DNA of 51,015 nucleotides from a virus (taxonomy: Duplodnaviria > Heunggongvirae > Uroviricota > Caudoviricetes): IMG/VR virus record IMGVR_UViG_2721755676_000003, positions 1-51,015 of that record. One strand, written 5' to 3'. A model generated the notes under the pieces. That model was not told where the DNA came from and searched no databases. It saw nothing but the letters and a program-made list of their open reading frames with translations. This document shows positions 5,699 through 49,817 of the stretch, piece after piece (the first letter of the stretch is position 1; each line of letters opens with the position of its first letter). Position numbers and translations under genes: made by a program.

Positions 5699-5863
5699 TT
5701 ATGCCTCGTGCGCCATTTGGTCGTACGAAGAACAACGTTCAGAGCAGTATTCTTTTTCTTTGCGCGCCAGCTGTGAGCCGTTGCGATAGAGAAGGATACT
5801 TTTGACTACTTCCTCCGGTTTAACCGGATTGCCGCAGTACCCGCATTTCGTTGAGTTACACAT
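5699..5863 (-). CDS. Small Cys-rich (zinc-ribbon-like) protein, 54 aa
   Basis: Hand-translated ORF MCNSTKCGYCGNPVKPEEVVKSILLYRNGSQLARKEKEYCSERCSSYDQMAHEA, below the ORF-track size cutoff; CxxxxCxxC...CxxxC pattern; sits where Rac-type prophages carry small early genes. Confidence 0.3.
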   Translation of the reverse strand: MCNSTKCGYCGNPVKPEEVVKSILLYRNGSQLARKEKEYCSERCSSYDQMAHEA

Positions 5864-5972
5864 CTGGATTCCCCTTTTGCGCCAGCAGGTAGCACAAGCG
5901 GCGAAGAATCACCTCGAAGAAGTTCAGCTTTACAGCCTGCTGCCGTCCTGGTTTGCGTGCGAAATCAATCAT
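5856..5972 (-). CDS. Small ORF (38 aa), translationally coupled to the Cys-rich ORF
   Basis: Hand-found ORF MIDFARKPGRQQAVKLNFFEVILRRLCYLLAQKGNPDV with RBS GAGGGTGAG 5 nt upstream; stop overlaps the next ATG by 8 nt. Confidence 0.2.
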   Translation of the reverse strand: MIDFARKPGRQQAVKLNFFEVILRRLCYLLAQKGNPDV

Positions 5973-6123
5973 TCTCACCCTCGTTTGCCTTATCGCCGGC
6001 CAGCGGAACGTTTACACCTGATGCGCGTTAATCTCTCCACCTCATCCGACTGTTCGTATGCCGTCGGCGGCTACTTCGTGGGCTCCATGCCTTGGTGGTT
6101 CGTAGTGCGTCTTGGTGATCTTG

Positions 6124-6152
6124 ATTAAATCACTGGTTTATGTTCGTGTCAA
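6124..6152 (-). promoter_or_regulatory. PL-like early leftward sigma70 promoter (-35 TTGACA, 17-nt spacer, -10 TTTAAT)
   Basis: Read on minus strand: TTGACA-cgaacataaaccagtga-TTTAAT; lies just downstream of the cargo-operon terminator and upstream of the small ORFs/recE/recT/xis/int. Confidence 0.4.
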
Positions 6153-6166
6153 TGTGTGGTTGATGT

Positions 6167-6190
6167 TAATTGTAAATCTGAGGTTTATAT
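6167..6190. promoter_or_regulatory. Putative operator (OL-like), motif TAAAT-N4-GGTTTA shared with the repressor/cro intergenic region
   Basis: taaatctgaggttta here versus taaatctgtggttta and taaatatttggttta near 8255-8319; additional ACTGGTTT half-motifs at about 6131 and 6191. Confidence 0.4.
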
Positions 6191-6302
6191 GACTGGTTTT
6201 TGTGACGTGCCTGCCGAATCGCAGGCAAAAAAAATCCCGACACAAAGGTCGAGATCGAAAAGTTTGGAGCGGCGGCTTGGAGGTGGAACAGATGTATGAG
6301 TT

Positions 6303-6328
6303 ATTAAAAACCCGGCACGGAGGCCGGG
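6303..6328 (-). terminator. Rho-independent terminator ending the repressor-downstream cargo operon
   Basis: Minus-strand reading: stem CCCGGC, loop CUCCGU, stem GCCGGG, then UUUUUAAUAA, beginning 5 nt after the stop of the 310-aa ORF. Confidence 0.55.
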
Positions 6329-6332
6329 TCGG

Positions 6333-7265
6333 TTAGTTAAGACTTTTAATCATATAGTTACGTCTAGAGATCTTTAATCTGTCATTATGAATTTCTGTAA
6401 CGCTAGCAACCATTGATACGTGTGAGCCTACTTTAAATCTTGACTGTATTTCACTAAGCATATCAATAGGATATGATGCCTTTATCTTTCCGTCAGCGTT
6501 CACCACTTCGAGTTTGCCATACATAGAGAGCAGTGATAGCTCACCTGTGATAATTTCATTCCACGGTTTGGATATTTCCGTGAAAGCTAACCTTTTTGTG
6601 AGCCTATCAATAGCTTCTTTGTTTAAGGAAACCGAACGCCTACCTTCACTTAACGGTCCGATCCAAGATAATTCTAGTGCTAAGCCATTTCGCTCGCACT
6701 CTTCTACAATGTTTTTAAGGTTATGCGTTGAATTCGACCCAATTTCAGCAAGTTTAGAAATAAATGAATCTTCGTCAGTGGCCTCTAGTACTGAGAAAAT
6801 TTCTTTTACAGCATGGCTAGAAACCGTATCAACCAGTTCACATGCCCCTGTGGAGAACGTTACGGCTAGCTTTGTTGAACCAGGCCTCAAATCAGCCAGT
6901 CTCATATCTAGAGACTGCTTTATCCCTACAGGTACCTTGCGTGAGTCTTTTCCTGATGAAATCCGATGTACGGCTTTTTGAACTAGGCCAGCAAGGTTTC
7001 CAGAAATGACAGAAAGTAATTCCAGAGGCATAGTTCCTGCGTCAACAAGAAAACCTTTGAACCTTAACTCCATGAAATCTTGGAGCGGGTGCTCTATCTC
7101 AGCAGATCTCAGTTCAGCCCTCAAATCGCTTAAATGGGAATCTAAGCTGCGCGCTAAAATTCTGTCGGCAAGAGTCATTTCATGAGCAGGGCCGATTTTG
7201 TTCATACGATCCTGAATGAACGCAATCCTTTGTTTTAATGGTATAAATTTTGGCTCTGTGCTCAT
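6333..7265 (-). CDS. Uncharacterised 310-aa protein, second gene of NTase-led operon
   Basis: 310-aa ORF; start ATG overlaps upstream gene stop (ATGA coupling); no motif I can assign; soluble. Confidence 0.6.
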   Translation of the reverse strand: MSTEPKFIPLKQRIAFIQDRMNKIGPAHEMTLADRILARSLDSHLSDLRAELRSAEIEHPLQDFMELRFKGFLVDAGTMPLELLSVISGNLAGLVQKAVHRISSGKDSRKVPVGIKQSLDMRLADLRPGSTKLAVTFSTGACELVDTVSSHAVKEIFSVLEATDEDSFISKLAEIGSNSTHNLKNIVEECERNGLALELSWIGPLSEGRRSVSLNKEAIDRLTKRLAFTEISKPWNEIITGELSLLSMYGKLEVVNADGKIKASYPIDMLSEIQSRFKVGSHVSMVASVTEIHNDRLKISRRNYMIKSLN

Positions 7266-7735
7266 ACTACAACCCTCGCTAAACCTTTTGGCGTTTCCTC
7301 TCTATCGTATCCAAAGCACCCTCGCCAATACATCCTGTCGTTTGTATAATCAGACTTTGGATCCCCTTTGAAAAGAGGTAAAAGGTCAATATGATAATTT
7401 AACTTTATAAAATCCCTATCCAAGAGACTTTCAACCTGAGGGGCAAACATTATAGGAATGGCATTTATAGCATCAAAATCCATAACAACTAGTATATCGA
7501 CATCATCGGGATCTAGTTTTTCAGTTGTAAATGAGCCGTCTACCCAAATTTCCAGAAAGCAATTAAATTGCTTATTAAGAACGCGCAAGTTGGTAATTAA
7601 CTGTATGAAATTACAGTATAGCATGGATCTACGAGTTGACTTAGGAAAACTATCAACACATATTTTTTTCAACTGGTTGTCATCAATATCATGAAAACCT
7701 GGTGTGAAGAGTGGCGGATAGCATTTCTTAGACAT
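7262..7735 (-). CDS. Small nucleotidyltransferase-fold protein (Pol-beta/minimal NTase signature)
   Basis: 157-aa ORF containing hG[GS]-x9-DxD-hhhh signature (IWVDGSFTTEKLDPDDVDILVVMDFD) typical of minimal nucleotidyltransferases. Confidence 0.5.
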   Translation of the reverse strand: MSKKCYPPLFTPGFHDIDDNQLKKICVDSFPKSTRRSMLYCNFIQLITNLRVLNKQFNCFLEIWVDGSFTTEKLDPDDVDILVVMDFDAINAIPIMFAPQVESLLDRDFIKLNYHIDLLPLFKGDPKSDYTNDRMYWRGCFGYDREETPKGLARVVV

Positions 7736-7860
7736 AAGAAGCGTAATCCCTTACATGTTTTAATTGAGTATGTACCAACGATTTCGGCGATACAGCCGCT
7801 CTATCTAAATCTTTTGATAACTACAAATGTTCTATGCCGCAAAAAGCCTTAAACGAAGCA

Positions 7861-8244
7861 TTAATCTTCTTGAGTACGAATCCGTCCCTTCATGTACTTC
7901 TCATACAGGTCATCTAGTTCTTTCAGACGAATCGCGAAGATGCGGAGCATGTTCTGCTGCTCTTCTTCCGGTAACTGGCGGTAGAGCTCCAGCAAGCGCT
8001 GTTCGTCCGGCTTAAGTCCATCTTTTTCACCAACGTCCTCACCGAGTAACCAGGCGACAGAAATGCCTACAGCGTCGGCTATGGCCAGTGCCGATTTCTT
8101 ACTAATCACGCCTTTTTTGAACCAGCCGTTTACGGCCTGAGGAGTGACTCCAGCTATTCGTGCCAAGTCTGCTTTTGTAACGCCGCGATCAGTGATCTCA
8201 GTAAGGCGCTCTACCAGAACGAGGTTGGGTTCTTCTTTTCTCAT
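7861..8244 (-). CDS. Prophage repressor, HTH (XRE/Cro-CI family, RacR-like, no peptidase domain)
   Basis: HTH segment GVTKADLARIAGVTPQAVNGWFKKG; divergent from cro-like gene across an operator-rich intergenic region; start chosen at MRKEE (alternative ATG at 8274); the ORF-track start at 8346 is implausible because it abuts the cro start. Confidence 0.7.
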   Translation of the reverse strand: MRKEEPNLVLVERLTEITDRGVTKADLARIAGVTPQAVNGWFKKGVISKKSALAIADAVGISVAWLLGEDVGEKDGLKPDEQRLLELYRQLPEEEQQNMLRIFAIRLKELDDLYEKYMKGRIRTQED

Positions 8245-8250
8245 AGGGTC

Positions 8251-8319
8251 ATTGTAAATATTTGGTTTATACATACAATAAATCCAAGATTTGCATGAAA
8301 TATAAATCTGTGGTTTACT
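8251..8319. promoter_or_regulatory. OR-like operator/promoter region (two TAAAT-N4-GGTTTA repeats; PR candidate -35 TTGCAT, -10 TTTACT)
   Basis: Repeats at about 8255-8269 and 8304-8318; the second overlaps the candidate PR spacer/-10 upstream of the cro-like gene RBS AGGAG. Confidence 0.4.
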
Positions 8320-8346
8320 TTTGCTGTTAATAAGCAGGAGAAGCAC

Positions 8347-8574
8347 ATGTCCGCACTCGATAAAGCAATTAAAGCCGCTGGCTCAGCCAGAAAGCTCAGC
8401 ATCGCGCTTGGTGTGACGAGTATGTCTGTAAGTCATTGGAAGAATCGTGACCAAGGGATCGTCCCGCCAAGTTATATATTCCCGATTTTCAAAATGACAG
8501 GCGTAACTCCCCATGAGCTGCGCCCCGATCTCTATCCAAACCCAACAGACGGTTTACCTAAACAGGAGCCCTAA
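8347..8574 (+). CDS. Cro/YdaS-like HTH protein
   Basis: 75-aa ORF, divergent from repressor, strong RBS; HTH-like SARKLSIALGVTSMSVSHW. Confidence 0.6.
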   Translation: MSALDKAIKAAGSARKLSIALGVTSMSVSHWKNRDQGIVPPSYIFPIFKMTGVTPHELRPDLYPNPTDGLPKQEP

Positions 8575-8576
8575 CA

Positions 8577-9128
8577 ATGCAAACTGTTTCATTTCAACAG
8601 AGTAGCAGAGCTTCCTCTAATCCACTGATATTCCCATGTCATCAAAGCGAATCTGCAACGCAGGATATTGATCATCGCGATATTTGTTCTGCAGTCCGGG
8701 CGTGGGCAGCGGCAGAAGGGCGCTTAGCTGTTGCGCTTCATATCCAAGAAGCGGCGGAAGAACTTCAACTTGATGGCGTGGATTTCTCAGGCCAGGCAGA
8801 TGTCTGGAACGTGAAGCTGTTCCGTTGGTTGGACAATAAAGACGATTCCGCATCCTACCGTAGAAACGTCGAGCAACTGTTACCCGCGATCATGTCTGTA
8901 TTGCCGCTTCGATACCGCGACCGTGTCGTAAAGAACGACTCGTTTGCTTACCGAATGGCACGGCTGGAAAAAGAGGTTAGTGAGGCGAAGCAAGCGCTGA
9001 TGCTCGATGCACCAAAGAAGGAAAAGCTGAAGGAGTTAGGCGAGGGGATTTTCGAAATGTTCAGAGTCGACCCTGACCTAACGGCGCCTTTACTGGCGAT
9101 GGTCACAACCATGCTGGGGGCAATGTGA
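8577..9128 (+). CDS. YdaT-like protein (cII-position regulator)
   Basis: 183-aa ORF between cro-like and O-like genes; segment QLLPAIMSVLPLRYRDRVV resembles recalled Rac YdaT (LIPAILAILPRELRHRL). Confidence 0.45.
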   Translation: MQTVSFQQSSRASSNPLIFPCHQSESATQDIDHRDICSAVRAWAAAEGRLAVALHIQEAAEELQLDGVDFSGQADVWNVKLFRWLDNKDDSASYRRNVEQLLPAIMSVLPLRYRDRVVKNDSFAYRMARLEKEVSEAKQALMLDAPKKEKLKELGEGIFEMFRVDPDLTAPLLAMVTTMLGAM

Positions 9129-10875: not shown

Positions 10876-11712
10876 CTAATGATGATAAATACCATCGTCT
10901 AAAGGGGGACCTTCAGCAGTAACCCCCGTGATTCTACTTGGCGGTTCAAAGATGGCCTCACCAAATATCGCATCAAACTCTGCTTTGGTGACTGATAAGT
11001 ATTGCAAGATGAGCTCTAGCAGCTCTCTGTACGTATCACAATGCCATTCAATGTGAGGACATATTTGGGAGAGAACTCTGGTCTTAAAATCATCCAGATT
11101 TTTTGGGACTTCCAGCAAGTTACCAGTGTTTAATGCTTTCGACATAAACTTGTAATTGAGCATGGAGAGAACCATTACTGATACACCTTTCTCTTGCCTT
11201 AACTGATCGAACTTCTCTTGTGCTTGAAGGCTTAGCTTGGCGTATTCGCGATCTCGTTTTGAGTTGACTGGTTCGACGTACTGAAGCGGTTCGTCTGCAG
11301 CATCACCGATACGTGGACAAAAGTATCTATTCCACCAAGCCTCAAAATACCTTTTTTGGAACTCTAGGTATGTCATCCCAATAATATTGGTGTTTTGAGT
11401 GTACTGTTTAGCACCCTGCTGAAGCCCGTGCTTTGAAATAATAAATCCAATGTTAGCCCCGGTTTCATGCATTACCGTGGTGAACGAATGGACCACCGTC
11501 TGAGGTATAGAACTACCCCAGTTTTTGCATTCCACAATGTATCTGATTTTGTCCACGCTCCTAACATCTGTAGCTAGAACATCCACATTCACCGAGCCAC
11601 GCGGTGTTTCTAAATCGACCTCGACTTCTGCAAACAAGCCAACATTACGGAATATACGTTGGACCCCTGTCTGGAGGTCTTGCCAGTTTTCTGGTAATGG
11701 GTCATCGATCAC
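10876..11712 (-). CDS. Mrr-like restriction-endonuclease-fold protein (PD-(D/E)xK) with unknown C-terminal domain
   Basis: N-terminal VDVLATDVRSVDKIRYIVECKNW (D...ExK) typical of Mrr_cat nucleases; opposite strand to the replication genes. Confidence 0.5.
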   Translation of the reverse strand: MIDDPLPENWQDLQTGVQRIFRNVGLFAEVEVDLETPRGSVNVDVLATDVRSVDKIRYIVECKNWGSSIPQTVVHSFTTVMHETGANIGFIISKHGLQQGAKQYTQNTNIIGMTYLEFQKRYFEAWWNRYFCPRIGDAADEPLQYVEPVNSKRDREYAKLSLQAQEKFDQLRQEKGVSVMVLSMLNYKFMSKALNTGNLLEVPKNLDDFKTRVLSQICPHIEWHCDTYRELLELILQYLSVTKAEFDAIFGEAIFEPPSRITGVTAEGPPLDDGIYHH

Positions 11713-12046
11713 TTTTACTTTTCCTATGCACTATCCGCATGCTTTTAAGACTACTTGAAGACACAAACGTCGTCATCCACTAAAAGGTTCAAATTTGAGA
11801 TGATAGTTCGTTTCTGGTATGAAACGAACCGTTTGAAGAGCCGAGTGCTCTGCTAAGAGCCAGGAGTGGACGTTCTCAAAGCATTGCTTACATCGAGGAT
11901 GTATTAATCAACGGGGTGCAGGTCAATTGATCCATAAAAGGTTGAATGCTCTATACTAAGCACTAGTAAAAAACATTGCACAACATACACTTAAGGTTTA
12001 AATTGCTTATCACCAAAACATAAATTTAATCATAGGCTGATGGCGT

Positions 12047-13510
12047 ATGCTAAAGGTAATTAAAAAAGGTATTGGCTTCAATAAAACAGAAAAAAGATTG
12101 ATTGAATTAGCTAATAATGCCTTTATAGGTTTGTGGTCATATCCTAATGTTTATAGTGATGAGGGTTTTGCAAAAAATAAATCGGGTAAAGAAGTGTGTG
12201 ATTTATTAGTGGTTTTTGAAAATAATGTAATTTTGTTTTCTGATAAAGACATTAAGTTTAATGATGAAATTGATATCCATATTGCATGGAAAAGATGGTT
12301 TAGGAGAGCAGTAATCGAATCAGCGACTCAACTGCATGGAGCTGAAAAATTTCTAAAAGAGCAAAGTGACAGATTATTTCTTGATAAAGAGTGTAAGGAG
12401 AGGTTTCCAATAACAATTGACAATAAGATGCGCTTTTTTTTGATCGCAGTAACTAGCAATAGCGCAATTCCAGCTTTCAATTACTTTGGTCGTATCGCGG
12501 AAGGAAGTTCTGGAACTTTAGTAAATTGCTTTCCCTTTGGAATAAAGGAAAGTATGGAGCAACCTTTTACTGTTGGAGATTTGTATCCTGATAAGACATT
12601 TATCCATGTTTTAGATGAACTATCGTTAAAATTACTATTCTCTGAGCTGGATACAATTACTGACTTCGTTGACTATTTAAAAGAGAAAGAACGAGTCGTG
12701 AGGACAGGTTTTCTTGGATTAAGTCCTGGTGAGGATGACACACTGGGTGCCTACTTGATCGGGCATGGATTAATAGTAGATGAAAAGAAGGTGCCAAAAA
12801 ACTCGTTTGTTCGAATTGCAGAGCATGAATGGACTGAACTAAAAAAATCGCAATTATATGAATATTATACAGCTCTAAAAAAAGGTAGCTATTTTTGGGA
12901 TGAAACAGTACAACGTTTTTCCGATTCCATATTAAATGCAACTGTTGGTCTAGGTAAGGAAAATGACTTTCTTAGTCATGAGGAAACATTAAGACAATTA
13001 GCCTCTGAAAGCAGAGAATCAAGATATTATTTATCTAAATCATTCTTGGATAAATTCAAGCAAGTTCCTTCTGACAGAAGAAGCTCCAGAATCGTAGAGT
13101 CTTTAGATGAAAAAGGAAAGTTTTATATTTTTTTGTTTTTTCCGCGTGAAAAACATTTATCATATGAGGAATATAGAAACGAACGTTTTTCTTGCATTCA
13201 AATGTATGCGTTAACAGCTAAATATAAATACCCACAAATAAAAAAACTCATAGTCATTGCTACTGAAAGTAAAGACTCCGAAGGTCGTTCAGAGGATGTG
13301 GTATTTTGTCGATTTGATAACCCCCTTTCAAAAGGCGAACGTCTGTTTGTACAATCAGTGATGCACGAATATAGCATACTTACTGATTTCATTCCAAAAC
13401 CGAACAATAAATTAAATTTGTCACCGATAGTTAAAAGTGACAAGAAACCTGGAAGGAATGAACCTTGTTTTTGTGGATCTGGTATAAAATATAAAAAATG
13501 CCATGGATAG
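12047..13510 (+). CDS. SEC-C motif protein of unknown function (AT-rich cargo)
   Basis: 487-aa ORF ending in CFCGSGIKYKKCHG (SEC-C metal-binding motif); strongly AT-rich relative to phage backbone. Confidence 0.6.
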   Translation: MLKVIKKGIGFNKTEKRLIELANNAFIGLWSYPNVYSDEGFAKNKSGKEVCDLLVVFENNVILFSDKDIKFNDEIDIHIAWKRWFRRAVIESATQLHGAEKFLKEQSDRLFLDKECKERFPITIDNKMRFFLIAVTSNSAIPAFNYFGRIAEGSSGTLVNCFPFGIKESMEQPFTVGDLYPDKTFIHVLDELSLKLLFSELDTITDFVDYLKEKERVVRTGFLGLSPGEDDTLGAYLIGHGLIVDEKKVPKNSFVRIAEHEWTELKKSQLYEYYTALKKGSYFWDETVQRFSDSILNATVGLGKENDFLSHEETLRQLASESRESRYYLSKSFLDKFKQVPSDRRSSRIVESLDEKGKFYIFLFFPREKHLSYEEYRNERFSCIQMYALTAKYKYPQIKKLIVIATESKDSEGRSEDVVFCRFDNPLSKGERLFVQSVMHEYSILTDFIPKPNNKLNLSPIVKSDKKPGRNEPCFCGSGIKYKKCHG

Positions 13511-13955
13511 AAAATTAGCATAATTCTATTAACTCATTGCCATTATCTTGACAAAACTAAATGGAAACTTGTCATATTTATTTCTTGAAAATATTTAATT
13601 ACTGGCTGTAGCAACTTTAACTTAGTGCGGGCATAGCTATGAATCTCCGATTGTACTGGCAGGGGGCTACAACTTTAGATGACTCACTCCCATCTTCAAC
13701 AAGCTAGCTGGCTGCCTTGTGTTGCGAGGATTCGTAATGATGATGTCAGTTTTGTCCGCTTCTGGCAAGAGGCGGACGAGATGGCTAGGCTTAAGACCTG
13801 CTGAAAGCCAGGAGCTGACATCACTACAACTTTTAATGCTAACTTCACTTAAAATAATTTTGGAATTTGCACATATGGGTTATATAAGTAAATCATCGCA
13901 ATGAGTTCTATGCGATAATTTTATATTTAGTCCCCATCTTTATCGGATGGTTCAT

Positions 13956-14729
13956 CTAAGCTTTAACTCGCCTGACAAGAGTTTTACTGCAACCTATACT
14001 GAGAAGGTGGCGTCGAAGATTTTTATCAATATGACTATCCAACGTGGTAATTAAAAACACTATATCCTCAATAACCTTAACAACATCCGAGCTTGATATT
14101 TTAGTGAGGCTTACCTTTGGTCTGTCACAATTATGGATACAATCATGTCTCCTCTGAATTAGCGAAGTATATCTGTTAGTTAGCTTTTCTAACATAGATT
14201 TCCGTTTTTTTTCTTTATCCTCTTTGGATAACTTTTTGTAAGCTGTTGGAGTGGTTCCCATAAGACGATGCTTCGCTGACTTATTTATCAACCAGTCCTC
14301 CATCATCGGCTTTGTTAATATTTTGTTTTTTTCATCCATGATATGATTGAACAAATCCTTAATTTTATCGATTGAAAGTACGTTATCTTTTTCAATCAAG
14401 TCACGTGCTGCATTTCGCCATTTCCAATTCGAAGTTGTATTCTGAGCATTCACGATAGAATTTATAGGTAACTTCAATGACCTTATCTTTGGGCTTAATT
14501 TGACATTGCTGTCAATGCTTTTTGCAATTAGGATTTTTGATAACACATCTGCAAATGCATCACAAAAATATGCATCAAGTGCTCCAATCGCAATCATCCA
14601 AGAGGCTCTATATATATCATCCTTTAGAGTCGATATAGGTAATGAATCAGCATGAGCTATAAGGTCTTTTGCTCTATTAATATCCTGATTAAAATGACTT
14701 AACGCTGTGCTTGGCATATAACACCTCAA
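13956..14729 (-). CDS. HEPN-like protein (candidate abortive-infection RNase)
   Basis: 257-aa ORF with C-terminal R-x4-H motif (LIQRRHDCIHNCDRPK) in a helical, lysine-rich protein; AT-rich. Confidence 0.4.
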   Translation of the reverse strand: MRCYMPSTALSHFNQDINRAKDLIAHADSLPISTLKDDIYRASWMIAIGALDAYFCDAFADVLSKILIAKSIDSNVKLSPKIRSLKLPINSIVNAQNTTSNWKWRNAARDLIEKDNVLSIDKIKDLFNHIMDEKNKILTKPMMEDWLINKSAKHRLMGTTPTAYKKLSKEDKEKKRKSMLEKLTNRYTSLIQRRHDCIHNCDRPKVSLTKISSSDVVKVIEDIVFLITTLDSHIDKNLRRHLLSIGCSKTLVRRVKA

Positions 14730-15040
14730 AATAAATGATTTATATGGTTAATTGGAAATGCAAAACTTAAATTTTAGTTTATACCGTTTGTTGCCAGAAT
14801 ACGATATATTCACAGATTCTAGACCATTAACATTGGCACTACAGCCAGATAATGAGTTTGAACGTACACCGTAGTATACTTTCTGATCTGCCCACCCCAA
14901 AAAAATTAGTACTATCTGGATTACCACAGTCCGCTCTTGTCACCCAAATGTTATTTTACCTTAATGACATTAGATTTCATTTGGATCAGATTGCCGCAAC
15001 TATCAGTGTGCGGCAAGTAGCTGAAGCATTCATAGAGTAT

Positions 15041-16285
15041 TTATGGGTCAAGGAGGGATTTAAACTGAGATATGGGATAGTCATATCGTTCGTTATAGAA
15101 TGCCGCAAGCTTGCAGTATTCTGCTAGGTGAGCATCTGGCCTGTATGGGACAATCGCTCCTTCAATCGATAGCTCAATACTATTAGTGACAATCAACATC
15201 AAGGCATGATCTTTAGTAAATAGTTGTTCTGAAAGTAAACGATATTTATTTTTAGGCTCGGAAATAGTTTTGAATGATTCGAACGTGTCATTAATAAACT
15301 GAAGTGCCAATGCTCCAGGTCGTTTTCCTGTCAGTTGTTTTTTTAACGCCCGCTTAGATACTTTCTCAACCTCTTTCCAAATTTGTACATCACCTGCGGA
15401 TACGACCCGAATTCCCTTTAATCGATGCTCAGAGTCATGGCAGGCCACTAACGCTGCTGTGGAGCCATGGAGTGTTTGTGCTGCATTGAAGACTACATTC
15501 TCATCAGTTTTATCTCCCAATAATGGGCAAAATTCTTCAACAACAGAAAACTTTTCGCTGTGTATATCGTTGCCTTGAGTTTCAATCTCGTCTACTAGGC
15601 GAGCCATAAATTCTTTGAAGCTTTTATCGTTCTTAGGCACAGGTTCCGTCAAAATGATGGTCAAGATACTTGCGAATCCTTCCTTTGCAGTGAGAAGTCT
15701 GTCGAGCGAGATTTTTTCCAGCAAAGCACCAATCAAGCGATGCCCATCTGCAAGACTAACAGCAAAACCTTTATCACCTGCGAAGGATTTGCACTCAAGC
15801 TCAAATGGAGGAAGCCCTTGAGGTGGGTAGACTAGAAGGTCAAAGGTCTCCTCGCCTTTACTTTCCTCTGGCCATTCAATGGAGCACCCCCTGGAGATTA
15901 GTGTTTTGGCCATATATAACTCGTACTGCAAAGCGCGCATGTCGCTGGCAAGCTTGAACGCACCCTCGAAACGTTTTTTGAGTTCCCTGGGGCCTGGTTC
16001 ACCTCTTTCCACTGCTTCACACAGTTCCACCACTCGCTGCACAAATAACATTGTCTGGAACATTGTATTCCATTCGTATCCCGCATTTAATGCATACTGA
16101 TTTCTATCCCAAAACGTCAAACCGAATGCTACTGAGTTTTCTAATTCTTCCTGTCCACCACGTCCAGCAAATTGATTTGAAAGTAACTTTATGTCCTGAA
16201 CGACCTTCAGCCAAGGCTTTAAAGGGAAAAGCTTGACTAAACGGTTATAAATATCAGGGAAGCTAAGCATAATGAGGGGCATCAA
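15041..16285 (-). CDS. Hypothetical 414-aa protein with PD-(D/E)xK-like motif
   Basis: ETFDLLVYPPQGLPPFELECKSF (D...E-x-K) suggests a nuclease fold; otherwise unrecognised. Confidence 0.45.
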   Translation of the reverse strand: MMPLIMLSFPDIYNRLVKLFPLKPWLKVVQDIKLLSNQFAGRGGQEELENSVAFGLTFWDRNQYALNAGYEWNTMFQTMLFVQRVVELCEAVERGEPGPRELKKRFEGAFKLASDMRALQYELYMAKTLISRGCSIEWPEESKGEETFDLLVYPPQGLPPFELECKSFAGDKGFAVSLADGHRLIGALLEKISLDRLLTAKEGFASILTIILTEPVPKNDKSFKEFMARLVDEIETQGNDIHSEKFSVVEEFCPLLGDKTDENVVFNAAQTLHGSTAALVACHDSEHRLKGIRVVSAGDVQIWKEVEKVSKRALKKQLTGKRPGALALQFINDTFESFKTISEPKNKYRLLSEQLFTKDHALMLIVTNSIELSIEGAIVPYRPDAHLAEYCKLAAFYNERYDYPISQFKSLLDP

Positions 16286-35704: not shown

Positions 35705-36508
35705 ATGAAAAAAATTGTAGGTGTGTTATTTCTTTCCTTCTTATTAGCTGGGTGCGATAAACCTAAAATTGACTCATCAACTGATGAAGCAATGAAATCA
35801 TCTATAGCCAAGGTCAGAGAATCACTTCCGGAAAATAAACGGGAGGAATTTGATAGCGCTTTAAAGGTCGTAGCGTTCAGTAACATTAATATGGCTGACC
35901 TAATGCGAGCATCGTCAGAAAGTGACAAAGAAGATCTAAGCAAGAAGATGCGCGAGCCCCTGTCAGGCAAAACTGGAGAGGAAATCATCTCTTATGCTCA
36001 GCAAGTAACTGCCGAGAGGGAACTTAAGCAGAAAGAGCAGGCAATTCAGGAAATCAAAGAGCTTGAACAGAAAAAAGCTGACTCTGAGAAGGCTAAAGAA
36101 GAACTCAAAAAAGTACAGGTTCTATCATCTCGATTTAGCCTGGAACCTGAAGAGTATGGGAAGCCACAACCTATTATTCGCCTTGTTGTGAAAAACAATA
36201 CTGATAAAGCTATTTCCCGTGTGTACTTCAATGGAGTGATAGCCAGCGATGGACGTTCAGTTCCATGGCTGGAAAAAGATTTTAACTACGAAATTGCTGG
36301 CGGGCTTGAACCGGGTGAAGAAGCTACTTGGGCATTGGCTCCGAATAAGTTTTCTGAATGGGGTCAGGTTGATGCTCCAGCTGATGCGGTCTTCACAGTT
36401 ACAGTAACGAGAGTCAATGGGGCAAATAAAGAAGCGATGTTTGATGCTTCCGGCTTTACAGAGCAAGAAAACAGCAGGCTTGAAGATTTAAAGAAAAGAT
36501 ACCTTTGA
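35705..36508 (+). CDS. Lipoprotein of unknown function (moron inserted between tape-measure and M genes)
   Basis: Signal peptide plus lipobox (MKKIVGVLFLSFLLAGC); Lys/Glu-rich coiled region; AT-rich; own terminator. Confidence 0.6.
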   Translation: MKKIVGVLFLSFLLAGCDKPKIDSSTDEAMKSSIAKVRESLPENKREEFDSALKVVAFSNINMADLMRASSESDKEDLSKKMREPLSGKTGEEIISYAQQVTAERELKQKEQAIQEIKELEQKKADSEKAKEELKKVQVLSSRFSLEPEEYGKPQPIIRLVVKNNTDKAISRVYFNGVIASDGRSVPWLEKDFNYEIAGGLEPGEEATWALAPNKFSEWGQVDAPADAVFTVTVTRVNGANKEAMFDASGFTEQENSRLEDLKKRYL

Positions 36509-38449: not shown

Positions 38450-39127
38450 GTGAGGCGAGTACCAAATACTAGTTCTAACTATATAAATAGTGATGAATAC
38501 AATGATTTATTTCATGATCATATGGACAAGGCTTTAGAGCGAGCTCTTGATACTAGAAAGTTTGAAATTGATCTATATTGGCGTCGCGCCACCTATTTTT
38601 GGACGTTCATAGGTGCTACATTCGGTGGGTTCTTTGTCGCATACGCTTCAACCTCACCTAAAAGGCAAGACTTATTAGTTATTCTTTGTTGTTTGGGGGT
38701 GGCTTTCTCGTTTGCATGGTTTTGTGTTAATAAAGGCAGTAAATACTGGCAAGAGAACTGGGAGAAGCACGTCGATCTTCTTGAAAATAAGTCGATTGGT
38801 CCATTGTATAAAATTGTCCTAACAAGAAATGAAGATATGACACTCCGGCAAAAAGCTTTTGATGTAATAACGGGTCCTGCAGCTTTATCAGTCTCGAAAA
38901 TTAATCAATTGATTAGCCTGTTTGTGTTAATGCTTTGGGTTGTGTTGCTTGTGAATTCCTTACTTCCGTTGGATTTCAACCTTCCATTTAAATGGTTTTA
39001 TATCATTCTTGTATTTACAACTATTCTTTTTTGCGGATTGGTAATGCTGCTAGGACGTACATATCATGGAGGGCATTATCATTTGGCAACGCTGAGGCAA
39101 TCTCGAATAAAACCTGAATCGGAATAG
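38450..39127 (+). CDS. Multi-pass membrane protein of unknown function (moron between K and I; candidate abortive-infection or exclusion effector)
   Basis: AT-rich ORF with several predicted TM helices (YFWTFIGATFGGFFVAYAS; LLVILCCLGVAFSFAWFCV; LISLFVLMLWVVLLV; FYIILVFTTILFCGLVMLL); start uncertain (GTG 38450 or ATG 38522); own terminator. Confidence 0.5.
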   Translation: MRRVPNTSSNYINSDEYNDLFHDHMDKALERALDTRKFEIDLYWRRATYFWTFIGATFGGFFVAYASTSPKRQDLLVILCCLGVAFSFAWFCVNKGSKYWQENWEKHVDLLENKSIGPLYKIVLTRNEDMTLRQKAFDVITGPAALSVSKINQLISLFVLMLWVVLLVNSLLPLDFNLPFKWFYIILVFTTILFCGLVMLLGRTYHGGHYHLATLRQSRIKPESE

Positions 39128-46964: not shown

Positions 46965-47384
46965 ATGGAATTTATCAGGCCTGCGGAACTGCGTGAAATT
47001 CTCGCTCTCCCGCTTTTCAGTGACTTAGTTCAGTGTGGTTTCCCAAGTCCAGCAGCTGATTACGTTGAACAACGTATCGATCTCAATGAGTTACTTGTCG
47101 CTCACCCGAGCTCAACGTATTTCGTCAAAGCCGCGGGCGATTCTATGATCGAAGCCGGGATCAGCGACGGTGATCTGCTGGTAGTGGACAGTTCCAGGAC
47201 TGCTGAGCATGGTGACATTGTCATCGCTGCGGTGGAAGGGGAGTTCACTGTTAAACGCCTGCAGCTGCGCCCGACCGTGCAACTCAATCCTATGAACAGC
47301 GCCTACAGTCCGATTGTTGTTGGCAGTGAAGACACACTGGACGTGTTTGGCGTTGTTACTTTCATCGTTAAATCTGCGAGCTGA
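46965..47384 (+). CDS. umuD: UmuD (Pol V accessory subunit, LexA-like S24 self-cleaving peptidase)
   Basis: [72 protein letters not shown]... near-identical to recalled E. coli UmuD; includes the Cys-Gly cleavage site and Ser/Lys dyad. Confidence 0.9.
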
Positions 47385-47386
47385 AC

Positions 47387-48655
47387 ATGTTTGCGCTCTG
47401 TGATGTGAATTCGTTTTACGCATCATGCGAGACGGTGTTTCGGCCCGATTTGAGAGGGCGGCCAGTAGTTGTTCTCTCGAATAATGACGGCTGCGTAATC
47501 GCGCGCAGCGCCGAGGCCAAAGCCGCCGGAATTACCATGGGAGAGCCTTTCTTTAAGCAAAAGGATCTATTCCGGCGCGCTGGTGTTGTTTGCTTCAGCA
47601 GTAACTACGAGCTGTACGCAGACATGTCGAACCGGGTAATGACGACGCTTGAGGAAATGAGCCCCCGCGTCGAAATTTACAGTATCGATGAAGCTTTTTG
47701 CGACCTGACTGGCGTTCGCAACTGCCGGGACCTGACTGACTTCGGCAAAGAAATTCGTTCTACGGTTCTAAAGCGTACGCACCTGACGGTTGGGGTTGGA
47801 ATTGCGCAGACAAAAACGCTCGCTAAGCTGGCCAATCACGCCGCGAAGAAGTGGCAGAGGCAGACGGGTGGAGTTGTTGATTTGTCCAATATCGATCGCC
47901 AGCGTCGGTTATTGGCAATTGTGCCTGTGGAGGATGTCTGGGGCGTCGGCAGGCGCATCAGTAAGAAGCTAAACGCCATGGGCATCAAAACGGCTCTGGA
48001 TCTCTCAGAACAAAGCACATGGATTATCCGTAAACATTTTAACGTGGTACTCGAGCGAACGGTCCGGGAGTTGCGCGGAGAGCCTTGTCTTGAGCTGGAG
48101 GAGTTTGCGCCGGCAAAGCAGGAAATCGTCTGCAGCCGATCGTTCGGCGAGCGCGTCACGGACTATGAGCAGATGCGTCAGGCTATCTGCAGCTATGCGG
48201 CGCGTGGCGCCGAAAAGCTTCGCGGCGAGCATCAGTATTGCCGTTTTATCTCGGCGTTCGTTAAGACGTCACCTTTTGCCCTGAATGAGCCATATTACGG
48301 TAATAGTGCGTCCATGAAGCTTCTTACTCCCACTCAGGATTCCCGCGACATCATCAACGCCGCGGTAAAGTGCCTGAACAAAATCTGGAAGGACGGCCAC
48401 CGCTATCAAAAAGCAGGAATCATGCTTGGGGATTTTTTCAGCCATGGTGTGGCTCAGCTCAACTTGTTCGATGAGAACGCGCCGCGCGAAGACAGCGCGC
48501 AACTGATGCAGATCCTTGACCAGCTCAATGCCAAAGGAGGAAAGGGCACACTCTACTTTGCAGGGCAGGGAATTCAGCAACAATGGCAGATGAAGCGAGA
48601 AATGCTTTCTCCGCGGTATACGACCCGCTTCCAGGATTTATTAATTGTTAAATAA
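47387..48655 (+). CDS. umuC: UmuC (Y-family translesion DNA polymerase V catalytic subunit)
   Basis: [41 protein letters not shown]... canonical UmuC N-terminus; 422 aa. Confidence 0.92.
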
Positions 48656-48723
48656 ATGCAGGACATTATGGTCAAAATAAAGTATCTTATTCAGGCACTT
48701 ATAAATACTTAAATGGAATTGAT

Positions 48724-49131
48724 ATGTTAAAACCTATTCTCGCATTAGCAGTTCTTACCTTATCTGGGTGTGCAATTATCCAAGAGCCTCCAAAACATGG
48801 CACTCCTGACGCTGTATATACGACTAAGAGCGATGCAAAAAGCGTTGCATTATGCATTGCTGATGTCTTTGCAGATTACGACCCTTACATCAAAGCTCGC
48901 TATAAAGAAGAATTCTGGGGTTATAAAATTAATTATTCCGCCGGGCAATATGGCGAAGCTGAAATTTACAAGAAAAATAACGTTACCACTGTGAATTATT
49001 TTGGTCAGAATAATTCAGACAAGAAAATGGTAAAGCATCTTAAAGACGGCATCCAAAAATGTGTAAATAAGGTGTACGACATGTCTCCAGTGGGTGGTAA
49101 GCAGCCAGATGGAAGCGTAAAACTCTGGTAA
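48724..49131 (+). CDS. Lipoprotein of unknown function
   Basis: Signal peptide plus lipobox (LAVLTLSGC); AT-rich. Confidence 0.55.
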   Translation: MLKPILALAVLTLSGCAIIQEPPKHGTPDAVYTTKSDAKSVALCIADVFADYDPYIKARYKEEFWGYKINYSAGQYGEAEIYKKNNVTTVNYFGQNNSDKKMVKHLKDGIQKCVNKVYDMSPVGGKQPDGSVKLW

Positions 49132-49145
49132 TATCTGTCAGGATA

Positions 49146-49817
49146 TCACTGAATATTATCAATCAATTCAGCACCCTGATTTTTTGGATTATCAACGGCA
49201 CGCGACACTGCGTGCCAGATAAACTTGTCGGCGTCCACTGTGCCGTCGGCCGCTATCTCTTCAGCTTCTTTCCCGCCTATATCCTGCCGCATCCATTCGC
49301 GAGCTGCTTCCGGCGACAGAACCAGTGGCCGGCGGTCGTGAATTTCGACCAGTCCTTTGTCAGCTGCAGACGTCACTATCAGAAAACCTTCTGCTTCATC
49401 GCCGCGCTCAAACGGTGTGCTGCCGATCGCCGCCATGAAAATCGGCTGTCCGTCGGCGCGGTGAATGAAGTAGGGCTGCTTCTTGTCACCTTCCTTCTTC
49501 CATTCGAACCATCCATCCGCAAAGCAGATCGCCCGGCCATGCTGCCAGAGGGGCTTAAACATTCGACTGGTGGCCGCAGTCTCGACACGCGCGTTAATCA
49601 GTGGTGGTTTATCCCACCACCCGGGCGCGTAACCCCAGAAAACCGGATCAAGATGCAGTTGCTCGTCGCGTTCGCTCAGCAACAGAACTTTGGTACCGGG
49701 CGCGACGTTGTACCGGCCAATCGGCTCAGGGTCATATGCTATGTCGCGATCGGCTTCATCGGCCAGGTAAGCAAGATATTCTTCACGGGTTTGGGCTTGT
49801 GCAAAACGTCCACACAT
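49146..49817 (-). CDS. SOS-response-associated peptidase (SRAP, YedK/HMCES family)
   Basis: Begins MCGRF (catalytic Cys2), 223 aa; family hallmarks recalled. Confidence 0.8.
   Translation of the reverse strand: MCGRFAQAQTREEYLAYLADEADRDIAYDPEPIGRYNVAPGTKVLLLSERDEQLHLDPVFWGYAPGWWDKPPLINARVETAATSRMFKPLWQHGRAICFADGWFEWKKEGDKKQPYFIHRADGQPIFMAAIGSTPFERGDEAEGFLIVTSAADKGLVEIHDRRPLVLSPEAAREWMRQDIGGKEAEEIAADGTVDADKFIWHAVSRAVDNPKNQGAELIDNIQ

Follow-up and report, generated by a model that had tools for sequence, protein, structure and literature searches.

A predicted minimal nucleotidyltransferase and its OB-fold partner as mobile two-gene cargo in a Rac/lambda-like prophage immunity region: membership in the candidate system PDC-M63

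The window analyzed here, the whole 51,015-nucleotide stretch of the IMG/VR record IMGVR_UViG_2721755676_000003, carries on its minus strand a pair of adjacent genes that an earlier reading of the bare sequence (the original prediction) had singled out as a candidate undescribed defence system expressed in the lysogen. The first gene (A, 7262..7735) encodes a 157-amino acid (aa) minimal nucleotidyltransferase (NTase) of the DUF6932 family, corresponding to PDC-M63A according to Pfam, PADLOC and a structural model, and the second (B, 6333..7265) encodes a 310-aa partner, corresponding to PDC-M63B according to PADLOC and a model; RefSeq labels them respectively 'DUF6932 family protein' and 'hypothetical protein'. 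Both open reading frames (ORFs) have exactly the positions, strand and lengths originally proposed and are far beyond chance, as judged by their matches to DUF6932, PDC-M63A/B and phrog_6603 and by 202 relatives of B. The stop codon of A overlaps the ATG of B by 4 nt in the sequence ATGA, as had been claimed, and the intrinsic terminator predicted to follow B is also recovered (6304..6330, minus strand): it begins 3 nt past the B stop codon with a hairpin (6309-6330) that has an 8-bp G+C-rich stem, continues into a U-tract (6304-6308) and folds with -14.7 kcal/mol (z = -2.81), with just 2 of 200 shuffled sequences being equally good. This hairpin was overlooked by a simple consensus terminator scan and was detected separately by folding; the scan reports a second terminator-like hairpin on the same strand (6233..6256), with 9 pairs followed by a T8 run (TTTTTTGCCT). 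The window as a whole is a complete prophage of ~50 kb inserted at dcp in Escherichia coli strain 210205630 from swine cecum, delimited by an integrase at one end and a truncated dcp remnant at the other, and the A-B module stands out within it by a G+C content of 40-44% versus 50-56% in the flanking phage genes.

The surroundings of the pair have the layout of an immunity region. Directly upstream of A lies the prophage repressor gene (7861..8346, minus strand), whose product is a cI/RacR-like helix-turn-helix (HTH) protein (HTH_3, 5.5e-7; Phage_CI_repr, 1.2e-4); RefSeq places its start so as to give a 137-aa protein (WP_057059573.1, 7861-8274), the longest ORF extending to 8346. The ORF list and the RefSeq annotation both give a cro-like gene (8347-8574) and a YdaT gene (8577-9128) divergent from the repressor. 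The repressor/cro intergenic region contains OR-like operator repeats (8251..8319), namely two copies of a 21-nt repeat, D1, at 8251-8271 (86%) and 8299-8319 (76%), and a further copy is found at 6169-6189 in an OL/PL-like region on the other side of the pair (6124..6203, minus strand). The latter region also contains a second repeat, D2, at 6125-6143 and 6185-6203, and promoter hexamers of the form TTGACA-17 nt-TTTAAT (minus strand, 6152-6147 and 6129-6124), which were read by eye from the sequence, as the rule of our promoter scan demands an A at position 2 of the -10 hexamer and so excludes this site. Because the OR-like and OL-like regions have operator repeats in common, the A-B pair is bracketed by operators in the manner of lambda rexAB. 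The repressor gene, the PL-like promoter and the rexAB-type slot between them, as given in the original prediction, are thus supported, and this slot recurs, as described below, in other phages. The 125-nt spacer from the repressor stop to the A start (7736..7860, minus strand) has no minus-strand intrinsic terminator or promoter at the scan threshold, which would allow read-through from the repressor promoter; in the absence of a predicted terminator upstream of A, transcription of the repressor gene in the lysogen probably continues into the pair and stops at the pair's own terminator before OL/PL.

Two further observations concern transcription in this region. A promoter-like TTGATG-16-TATAAT (10/12), which could drive B alone and recalls PLIT within lambda rexA, is present inside the coding sequence of A (7449-7476, minus strand), but it is a mere consensus match in AT-rich DNA, where the scan gives 9 sites versus 5.4 expected. 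Downstream of the OL/PL-like region no N-like antiterminator ORF was found (5699-6010); RefSeq has there only a YdaE-family gene (5699-5863, minus strand) and a pseudogene fragment, followed by RecE/RecT, and N-like genes are present at the corresponding point in the phages mEpX1 and Eho59.

The sequence signature that had suggested an NTase is well founded. A contains the motif VDGSFTTEKLDPDDVDILVV, which reads GS-x9-DxD, and matches Pfam DUF6932 with an E-value of 9.5e-22, whereas the Pfam NTP_transf_2 model aligns with residues 61-88 at an E-value of 0.18 only, under the model cut-off. In an alignment of 20 A homologues, down to 36% identity, the complete Pol-beta catalytic set is invariant, with G67 and S68 of the GS motif, D78 and D80 of DxD and D117 as the third carboxylate on the core sheet, as are W64, D66, K73, R138 and G139, and the basic residues outside the core (R138, R145, K150 and R154) are invariant or nearly so. 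The AlphaFold2 model of A, with a predicted local distance difference test score (pLDDT) of 94.4, retrieved from the PDB with Foldseek a series of minimal nucleotidyltransferases (MNTs) as top matches (2rff, 7ae9, 7ae2, 8xeo, 1no5 and 7bxo), which include the MNT antitoxin of a HEPN/MNT module (7ae9/7ae2), HI0073 (1no5) and MntA (7bxo). The match probabilities are 0.85-0.97 but the E-values are weak (5e-3 to 0.2) and the template-modelling (TM) score is ~0.3, the core alone being superposable; relative to the MNT proteins A has ~60 additional N-terminal residues and a conserved basic C-terminal WRG...PKG segment. Two of these nearest folds, 7ae9 and 7bxo, are antitoxins that AMPylate their HEPN partner. 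In light of the invariance of the catalytic residues and the similarity of the modelled fold to MNT proteins, we consider A to be a genuine minimal NTase of the Pol-beta superfamily with an intact catalytic set. No transmembrane segment was detected in A.

For B, searches against Pfam, NCBIfam and PDB sequences, whether with the single sequence, with an 83-sequence profile or by a member-by-member scan, gave no meaningful match, and no annotated or fused relatives came to light in a protein search with its profile. It matches phrog_6603 (E 8.8e-129) and belongs to a family of 202 clusters at 50% identity with E < 1e-3, nearly all of 300-325 aa, whose diverse alignment lacks any conserved stretch of 7-10 columns. 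The structural model of B (pLDDT 88; predicted TM-score, pTM, 0.79) has three parts, namely a helical hairpin (~10-57), an alpha/beta domain (~63-231) and a C-terminal beta-barrel (~235-310). The last of these is five-stranded and superposable on SSB, RPA and PriB, as expected of an OB fold, and is basic; to judge from the model, it probably binds single-stranded nucleic acid. Invariance across the 83 sequences is confined to G129, S130 and W201, the first two lying within the motif LDLRLAGLxxGS[TS][RK]L, which forms an exposed beta-hairpin of the alpha/beta domain, and E63, E66, R68, R122 and K/R132 are kept at 80-95%. These conserved residues do not make up a clear catalytic constellation, which leaves A as the sole recognizable enzyme of the pair. 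B also shows no transmembrane segment, with a maximum 19-residue hydropathy of 1.24. A reading of B as a HEPN protein by way of R39-x4-H44 was rejected, as H44 (72% conserved) is not preceded by a conserved arginine 5-7 residues earlier; a sub-threshold HEPN_AbiU2 match was seen in only one of the 83 family members.

The two genes recur together. Each of the 27 loci retrieved via B has A immediately upstream, and of the 49 loci retrieved via A from species-representative genomes ~32 have B downstream of A. The taxa with the pair include Gamma- and Betaproteobacteria, Flavobacteriales (Bacteroidota), Nitrospirae, Ignavibacteriae and Desulfobacterota, and further a metagenome-assembled genome (MAG) of Parcubacteria, which belong to the CPR (candidate phyla radiation) bacteria, and Methanosarcinales among the archaea. 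A stop/start overlap is seen in 48 of 55 intact pairs, being exactly 4 nt in 39 of those, and the pairwise identities of A correlate with those of B (r = 0.90; 0.80 for distant pairs; no value as high in 2000 permutations). The gene sequences thus indicate that the pair is translationally coupled and has been co-inherited across phyla, with B as the obligate partner of A.

The more distant DUF6932 genes show other arrangements. In Cytophagales (L067, L069, L072, L073, L074 and L076) the downstream gene codes for a conserved helical partner of ~100 aa, in Methanobrevibacter (L065 and L071) for one of ~215 aa, and some distant DUF6932 genes stand alone without a partner. We rejected the Cytophagales protein as a homologue of the N-terminal hairpin of B (hhalign probability 0.8%). 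One locus, L052 from a Rhodothermales MAG, is of a different kind: the N-terminal hairpin of its partner resembles that of B (E 4e-7, matching profile positions 3-62), and two hydrophobic, probably membrane-spanning segments stand in place of the OB module. As this partner keeps the hairpin and swaps the OB module, this single case hints that the hairpin of B is an adaptor to the enzyme and that the remainder is exchangeable.

In the lambdoid elements the genomic slot of the pair is constant. In every such element examined it lies directly downstream of the repressor, although four different repressors are involved: that of the window is HTH-only and that of an icd-site E. coli prophage is an S24/LexA-type cI. 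In phage mEpX1 the pair lies between cI and the annotated nutL boxA and N, and the same repressor-downstream slot is occupied in Erwinia phage vB_EhrS_59 (Eho59), in phage PhiR30_1 and in E. coli strain A12. These phage copies were located by tblastn with B, a megablast of the 1.56-kb region against phage records having returned no match. The exact DNA of the window occurs in 1 of 5426 complete E. coli genomes, and its allele is ~62% identical to the common E. coli allele, which is found in 98 of the 5426 and is always chromosomal. Outside lambdoid elements the pair is carried by a satellite-like island of Serratia with a DUF927 primase; a copy in Desulfuromusa adjoins a type I restriction-modification (RM) system and SIR2, and another adjoins a Lit-like peptidase. 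We conclude that this Rac/lambda-like prophage carries the pair as a mobile two-gene cargo within its immunity region. Its early, immunity-region position in the functional phages mEpX1, PhiR30_1 and Eho59, together with the ability of NTases to modify many substrates, could also be read as the sign of a role in the phage life cycle or in counter-defence, in which A would modify a host factor, a tRNA or an immune signal and no competitor would be excluded. We regard this as very unlikely. The pair is common outside phages, both in the chromosomes of Flavobacteria, Nitrospirae, CPR bacteria and archaea and in host RM and BREX loci, a distribution that sits badly with a function specific to phages or directed against defence, and most lambdoid phages lack it, as the above counts of its common and window alleles in E. 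coli also illustrate.

With respect to its prior status, the claim that the system is undescribed did not stand. A matches the PDC-M63A model of PADLOC-DB v2 (PDLC04744) over residues 1-156 of 157 with an E-value of 8.9e-40, and B matches PDC-M63B (PDLC04749) over its full length with an E-value of 8.9e-44, along with five more M63B models; the only other PADLOC match of the pair is a weak one to PDC-M32A. These profile matches place the pair in PDC-M63, which PADLOC lists as a candidate system on bioinformatic grounds only and for which no fold, mechanism or validation has been described. The PDC set goes back to Payne et al. 2024, who selected 145 'phage defence candidates' because they lie within BREX, DISARM or type I RM loci ('guilt-by-embedding') and whose candidates were entered into PADLOC untested (bioRxiv 10.1101/2024.01.29.577857); other authors have left PDC systems out as unvalidated. 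Independently, an allele of B that is 62% identical (WP_001288169.1) is listed as a 'Predicted novel defense gene' in Table S5 of DefensePredictor, with a score of ~5.8 versus a cut-off of 4, though it is not among the 118 transcription units that its authors cloned and tested. The same study validated DS-34, a unit of cI plus a downstream gene, which indicates that the cI-downstream slot does host active defences. The main texts searched make no mention of DUF6932 or of the protein accessions of the pair. Accordingly, the pair is not newly discovered but carries two independent computational flags and one negative experiment, discussed below; what is new here is the fold-level anatomy of A and B, the conserved immunity-region slot, the quantified coupling and the partner-swap variants. 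The case also has a practical side, in that a first-pass 'new' finding proved to be already among the PADLOC and DefensePredictor predictions, and the sole functional test found was negative.

The embedding of PDC-M63 in BREX, DISARM and RM loci, the SIR2 and Lit neighbours, the DefensePredictor score and the precedent of DS-34 suggest an association with defence. We propose, at about even odds (roughly 0.5), that A-B is a toxin-antitoxin (TA)-like phage-exclusion module that would protect the lysogen, with the enzyme acting on or through B. Several points weigh against this proposal. No toxic or effector domain is recognizable in B, and outside the OB fold it has no confident structural match. 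In E. coli NILS69, a native host with PDC-M63AB in a prophage, deleting the pair left infection by 10 virulent phages unchanged, the panel consisting of double-stranded DNA phages with no temperate ones among them. The genes also decay singly: A is frameshifted beside an intact B in Alcanivorax nanhaiticus (L058, 3069-3504), B is frameshifted beside an intact A in a viral contig of E. coli type (L026, 6001-6930) and in an Ignavibacteriae MAG (L044, 6438-7204), and in L052 an intact A has a different partner in place of B. Such single-gene decay in both directions suggests that neither A nor B is constitutively lethal alone, although the decayed copies could be assembly errors. Finally, many non-enteric neighbourhoods of the pair consist of housekeeping genes, so that the association with defence islands is moderate only; a claim of strong defence-island enrichment was dropped, since the tally of non-enteric neighbourhoods is too heterogeneous.

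The unchanged infection of the NILS69 knock-out would also be expected if the pair were a plain addiction module that serves only to stabilize the prophage or island, without acting against other phages. The TA-like layout, with the small gene first, a stop/start overlap and its own terminator, fits this explanation, as does its carriage by several types of mobile element including the satellite-like island. Nevertheless, we think it quite unlikely: the recurrent embedding in or beside RM, BREX and DISARM loci, a defence-prediction score well over the threshold and the single-gene decay in both directions speak against it, and the slot is that of known lysogen-expressed exclusion genes, with DS-34 as a validated cI-downstream unit.

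How a phage-exclusion module of this composition might act can be sketched by comparison with MntA. In such a scheme A would nucleotidylate B, with S130/T131 as candidate acceptors, and the nucleotidylated B would be kept inert; infection would upset the A-B balance, whereupon unmodified B may bind single-stranded DNA (ssDNA) or RNA through its OB fold and thereby block replication or translation. The gene order, the nearest folds of A and the lack of catalytic residues in B all fit this scheme, for which reason we favour it among specific mechanisms, but only as a tentative possibility. Equally tentative is the broader notion that PDC-M63 is a mechanistically new NTase-based immune or TA module, in which A would nucleotidylate, or make an oligonucleotide ligand for, an OB-fold partner without a known effector domain, and by which lambdoid lysogens would exclude mainly temperate phages; under this notion a narrow specificity for temperate phages would account for the negative result with virulent ones.

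The main alternative is the opposite division of labour, with A as the effector and B as the targeting or sensing subunit. Here the OB fold would recognize phage ssDNA or an RNA 3' end, to which A would add nucleotides, much as the MenT and AbiEii toxins add nucleotides to tRNA. A is the sole enzyme of the pair, B having no conserved catalytic residues, the basic residues R138, R145, K150 and R154 of A would suit a nucleic-acid substrate, and the OB domain of B is basic too. In a variant of this explanation resembling the Hailong system, A would make a short oligonucleotide that is bound by B, a complex that phage nucleases or SSBs would disturb; the hairpin-plus-membrane partner of L052 recalls the Hailong layout of an NTase with a membrane effector (PMC13276650), but it is known from a single MAG locus. 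The closest solved folds of A are, however, the protein-modifying MNT antitoxins and not MenT, AbiEii or CD-NTases, and an intact A beside a broken or replaced B in three loci, together with the existence of solo DUF6932 genes, makes an unrestrained toxic NTase unlikely. On balance we judge A as the effector to be rather unlikely and retain the proposal of a TA-like exclusion module in which A acts on or through B. If active, this soluble NTase/OB-fold module would join the small set of immunity-region genes typified by rexAB, sieB and similar genes, and if MntA-like modification of the partner is true, this activity would reach beyond HEPN toxins. The pair is a tractable case, as the isolated phages mEpX1 and PhiR30_1 have it in the native slot, the catalytic residues of A are mutable and B has one invariant serine, S130.

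The prophage has further cargo. A second island of low G+C (32-38%) lies at 10876-16285, between replication gene P and the DinI/NinB region, and comprises genes for an Mrr_cat restriction-endonuclease-like protein (10876-11712, minus strand), a 487-aa protein with a SEC-C motif (12047-13510, plus strand), a protein labelled 'HEPN domain-containing' by RefSeq (13956-14717, minus strand) and a hypothetical protein of 414 aa (15041-16285, minus strand). None of the proteins of this island matched a validated system in PADLOC; a different SEC-C protein was validated as DS-23 by DefensePredictor. Other cargo regions of the window, with coordinates converted from the record, lie at ~46965-49817, 38450-39127 and 35705-36508. 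The right end of the prophage has UmuD/UmuC-like translesion polymerase genes and an SOS-response-associated peptidase, and the insertions in the tail module encode a RipA-family octameric membrane protein and a DUF6694 lipoprotein.

It remains to place the pair among known systems, where the original prediction had set it outside AbiE, HepT/MntA and CBASS; this judgement is upheld, as neither protein has Pfam or PADLOC matches to these and B lacks a confident structural match beyond its OB fold. AbiE/MenAT, which are type IV TA systems with a DUF1814 NTase as the toxin, and CBASS resemble the pair in having a Pol-beta-superfamily NTase in a defence or TA operon, but their NTases are of ~300 aa and of different architecture compared with the 157 aa of A, and no match was found between A and the DUF1814, AbiE, MenT or CD-NTase models of Pfam and PADLOC. 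In AbiE, moreover, a regulator gene comes first, whereas the gene upstream of A is the prophage repressor and not AbiEi/MenA; for CBASS, PADLOC gave no model match, and CD-NTase structures appeared among the Foldseek matches of A at probabilities of only 0.23-0.33. The HepT/MntA modules (type VII TA) are closer, being small NTase-first operons with a minimal Pol-beta NTase that has GS-x9-DxD, and their MNT antitoxins are the nearest solved folds of A (7ae9, 7ae2, 8xeo and 7bxo). They differ in the partner, HepT being a HEPN RNase of ~140 aa and B a protein of 310 aa that combines a hairpin, an alpha/beta domain and an OB fold, with neither a HEPN Pfam match nor a conserved Rx4-6H motif; A itself departs from them by its ~60 extra N-terminal residues and C-terminal WRG...PKG segment, and its structural match is weak (TM ~0.3).

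With respect to position, the pair is alike to RexAB, SieB and other cI-downstream exclusion genes such as DS-34: it fills the slot that runs from the repressor to OL/PL, lies on the repressor strand and ends in its own terminator. RexB and SieB are membrane proteins, whereas A and B have no membrane segment, and RexAB and SieB have no sequence relationship to A or B, for which PADLOC gives matches to PDC-M63 and weakly to PDC-M32A only. Hailong, which consists of the nucleotidyltransferase HalB and the ion channel HalA, a partner able to bind single-stranded nucleic acid (review PMC13276650), has the same two-gene layout of NTase and partner, and one DUF6932 variant (L052) has a probable membrane partner; B is however soluble and without channel-like segments, the distinction being drawn from the partner alone, as homology of A and HalB was not compared. 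Thus, by sequence and model, the pair lacks the defining features of HepT/MntA, AbiE/MenAT, CBASS and, HalB homology aside, Hailong. To PDC-M63, on the other hand, it is alike in both proteins and in their order, strand and adjacency, with no difference in kind.

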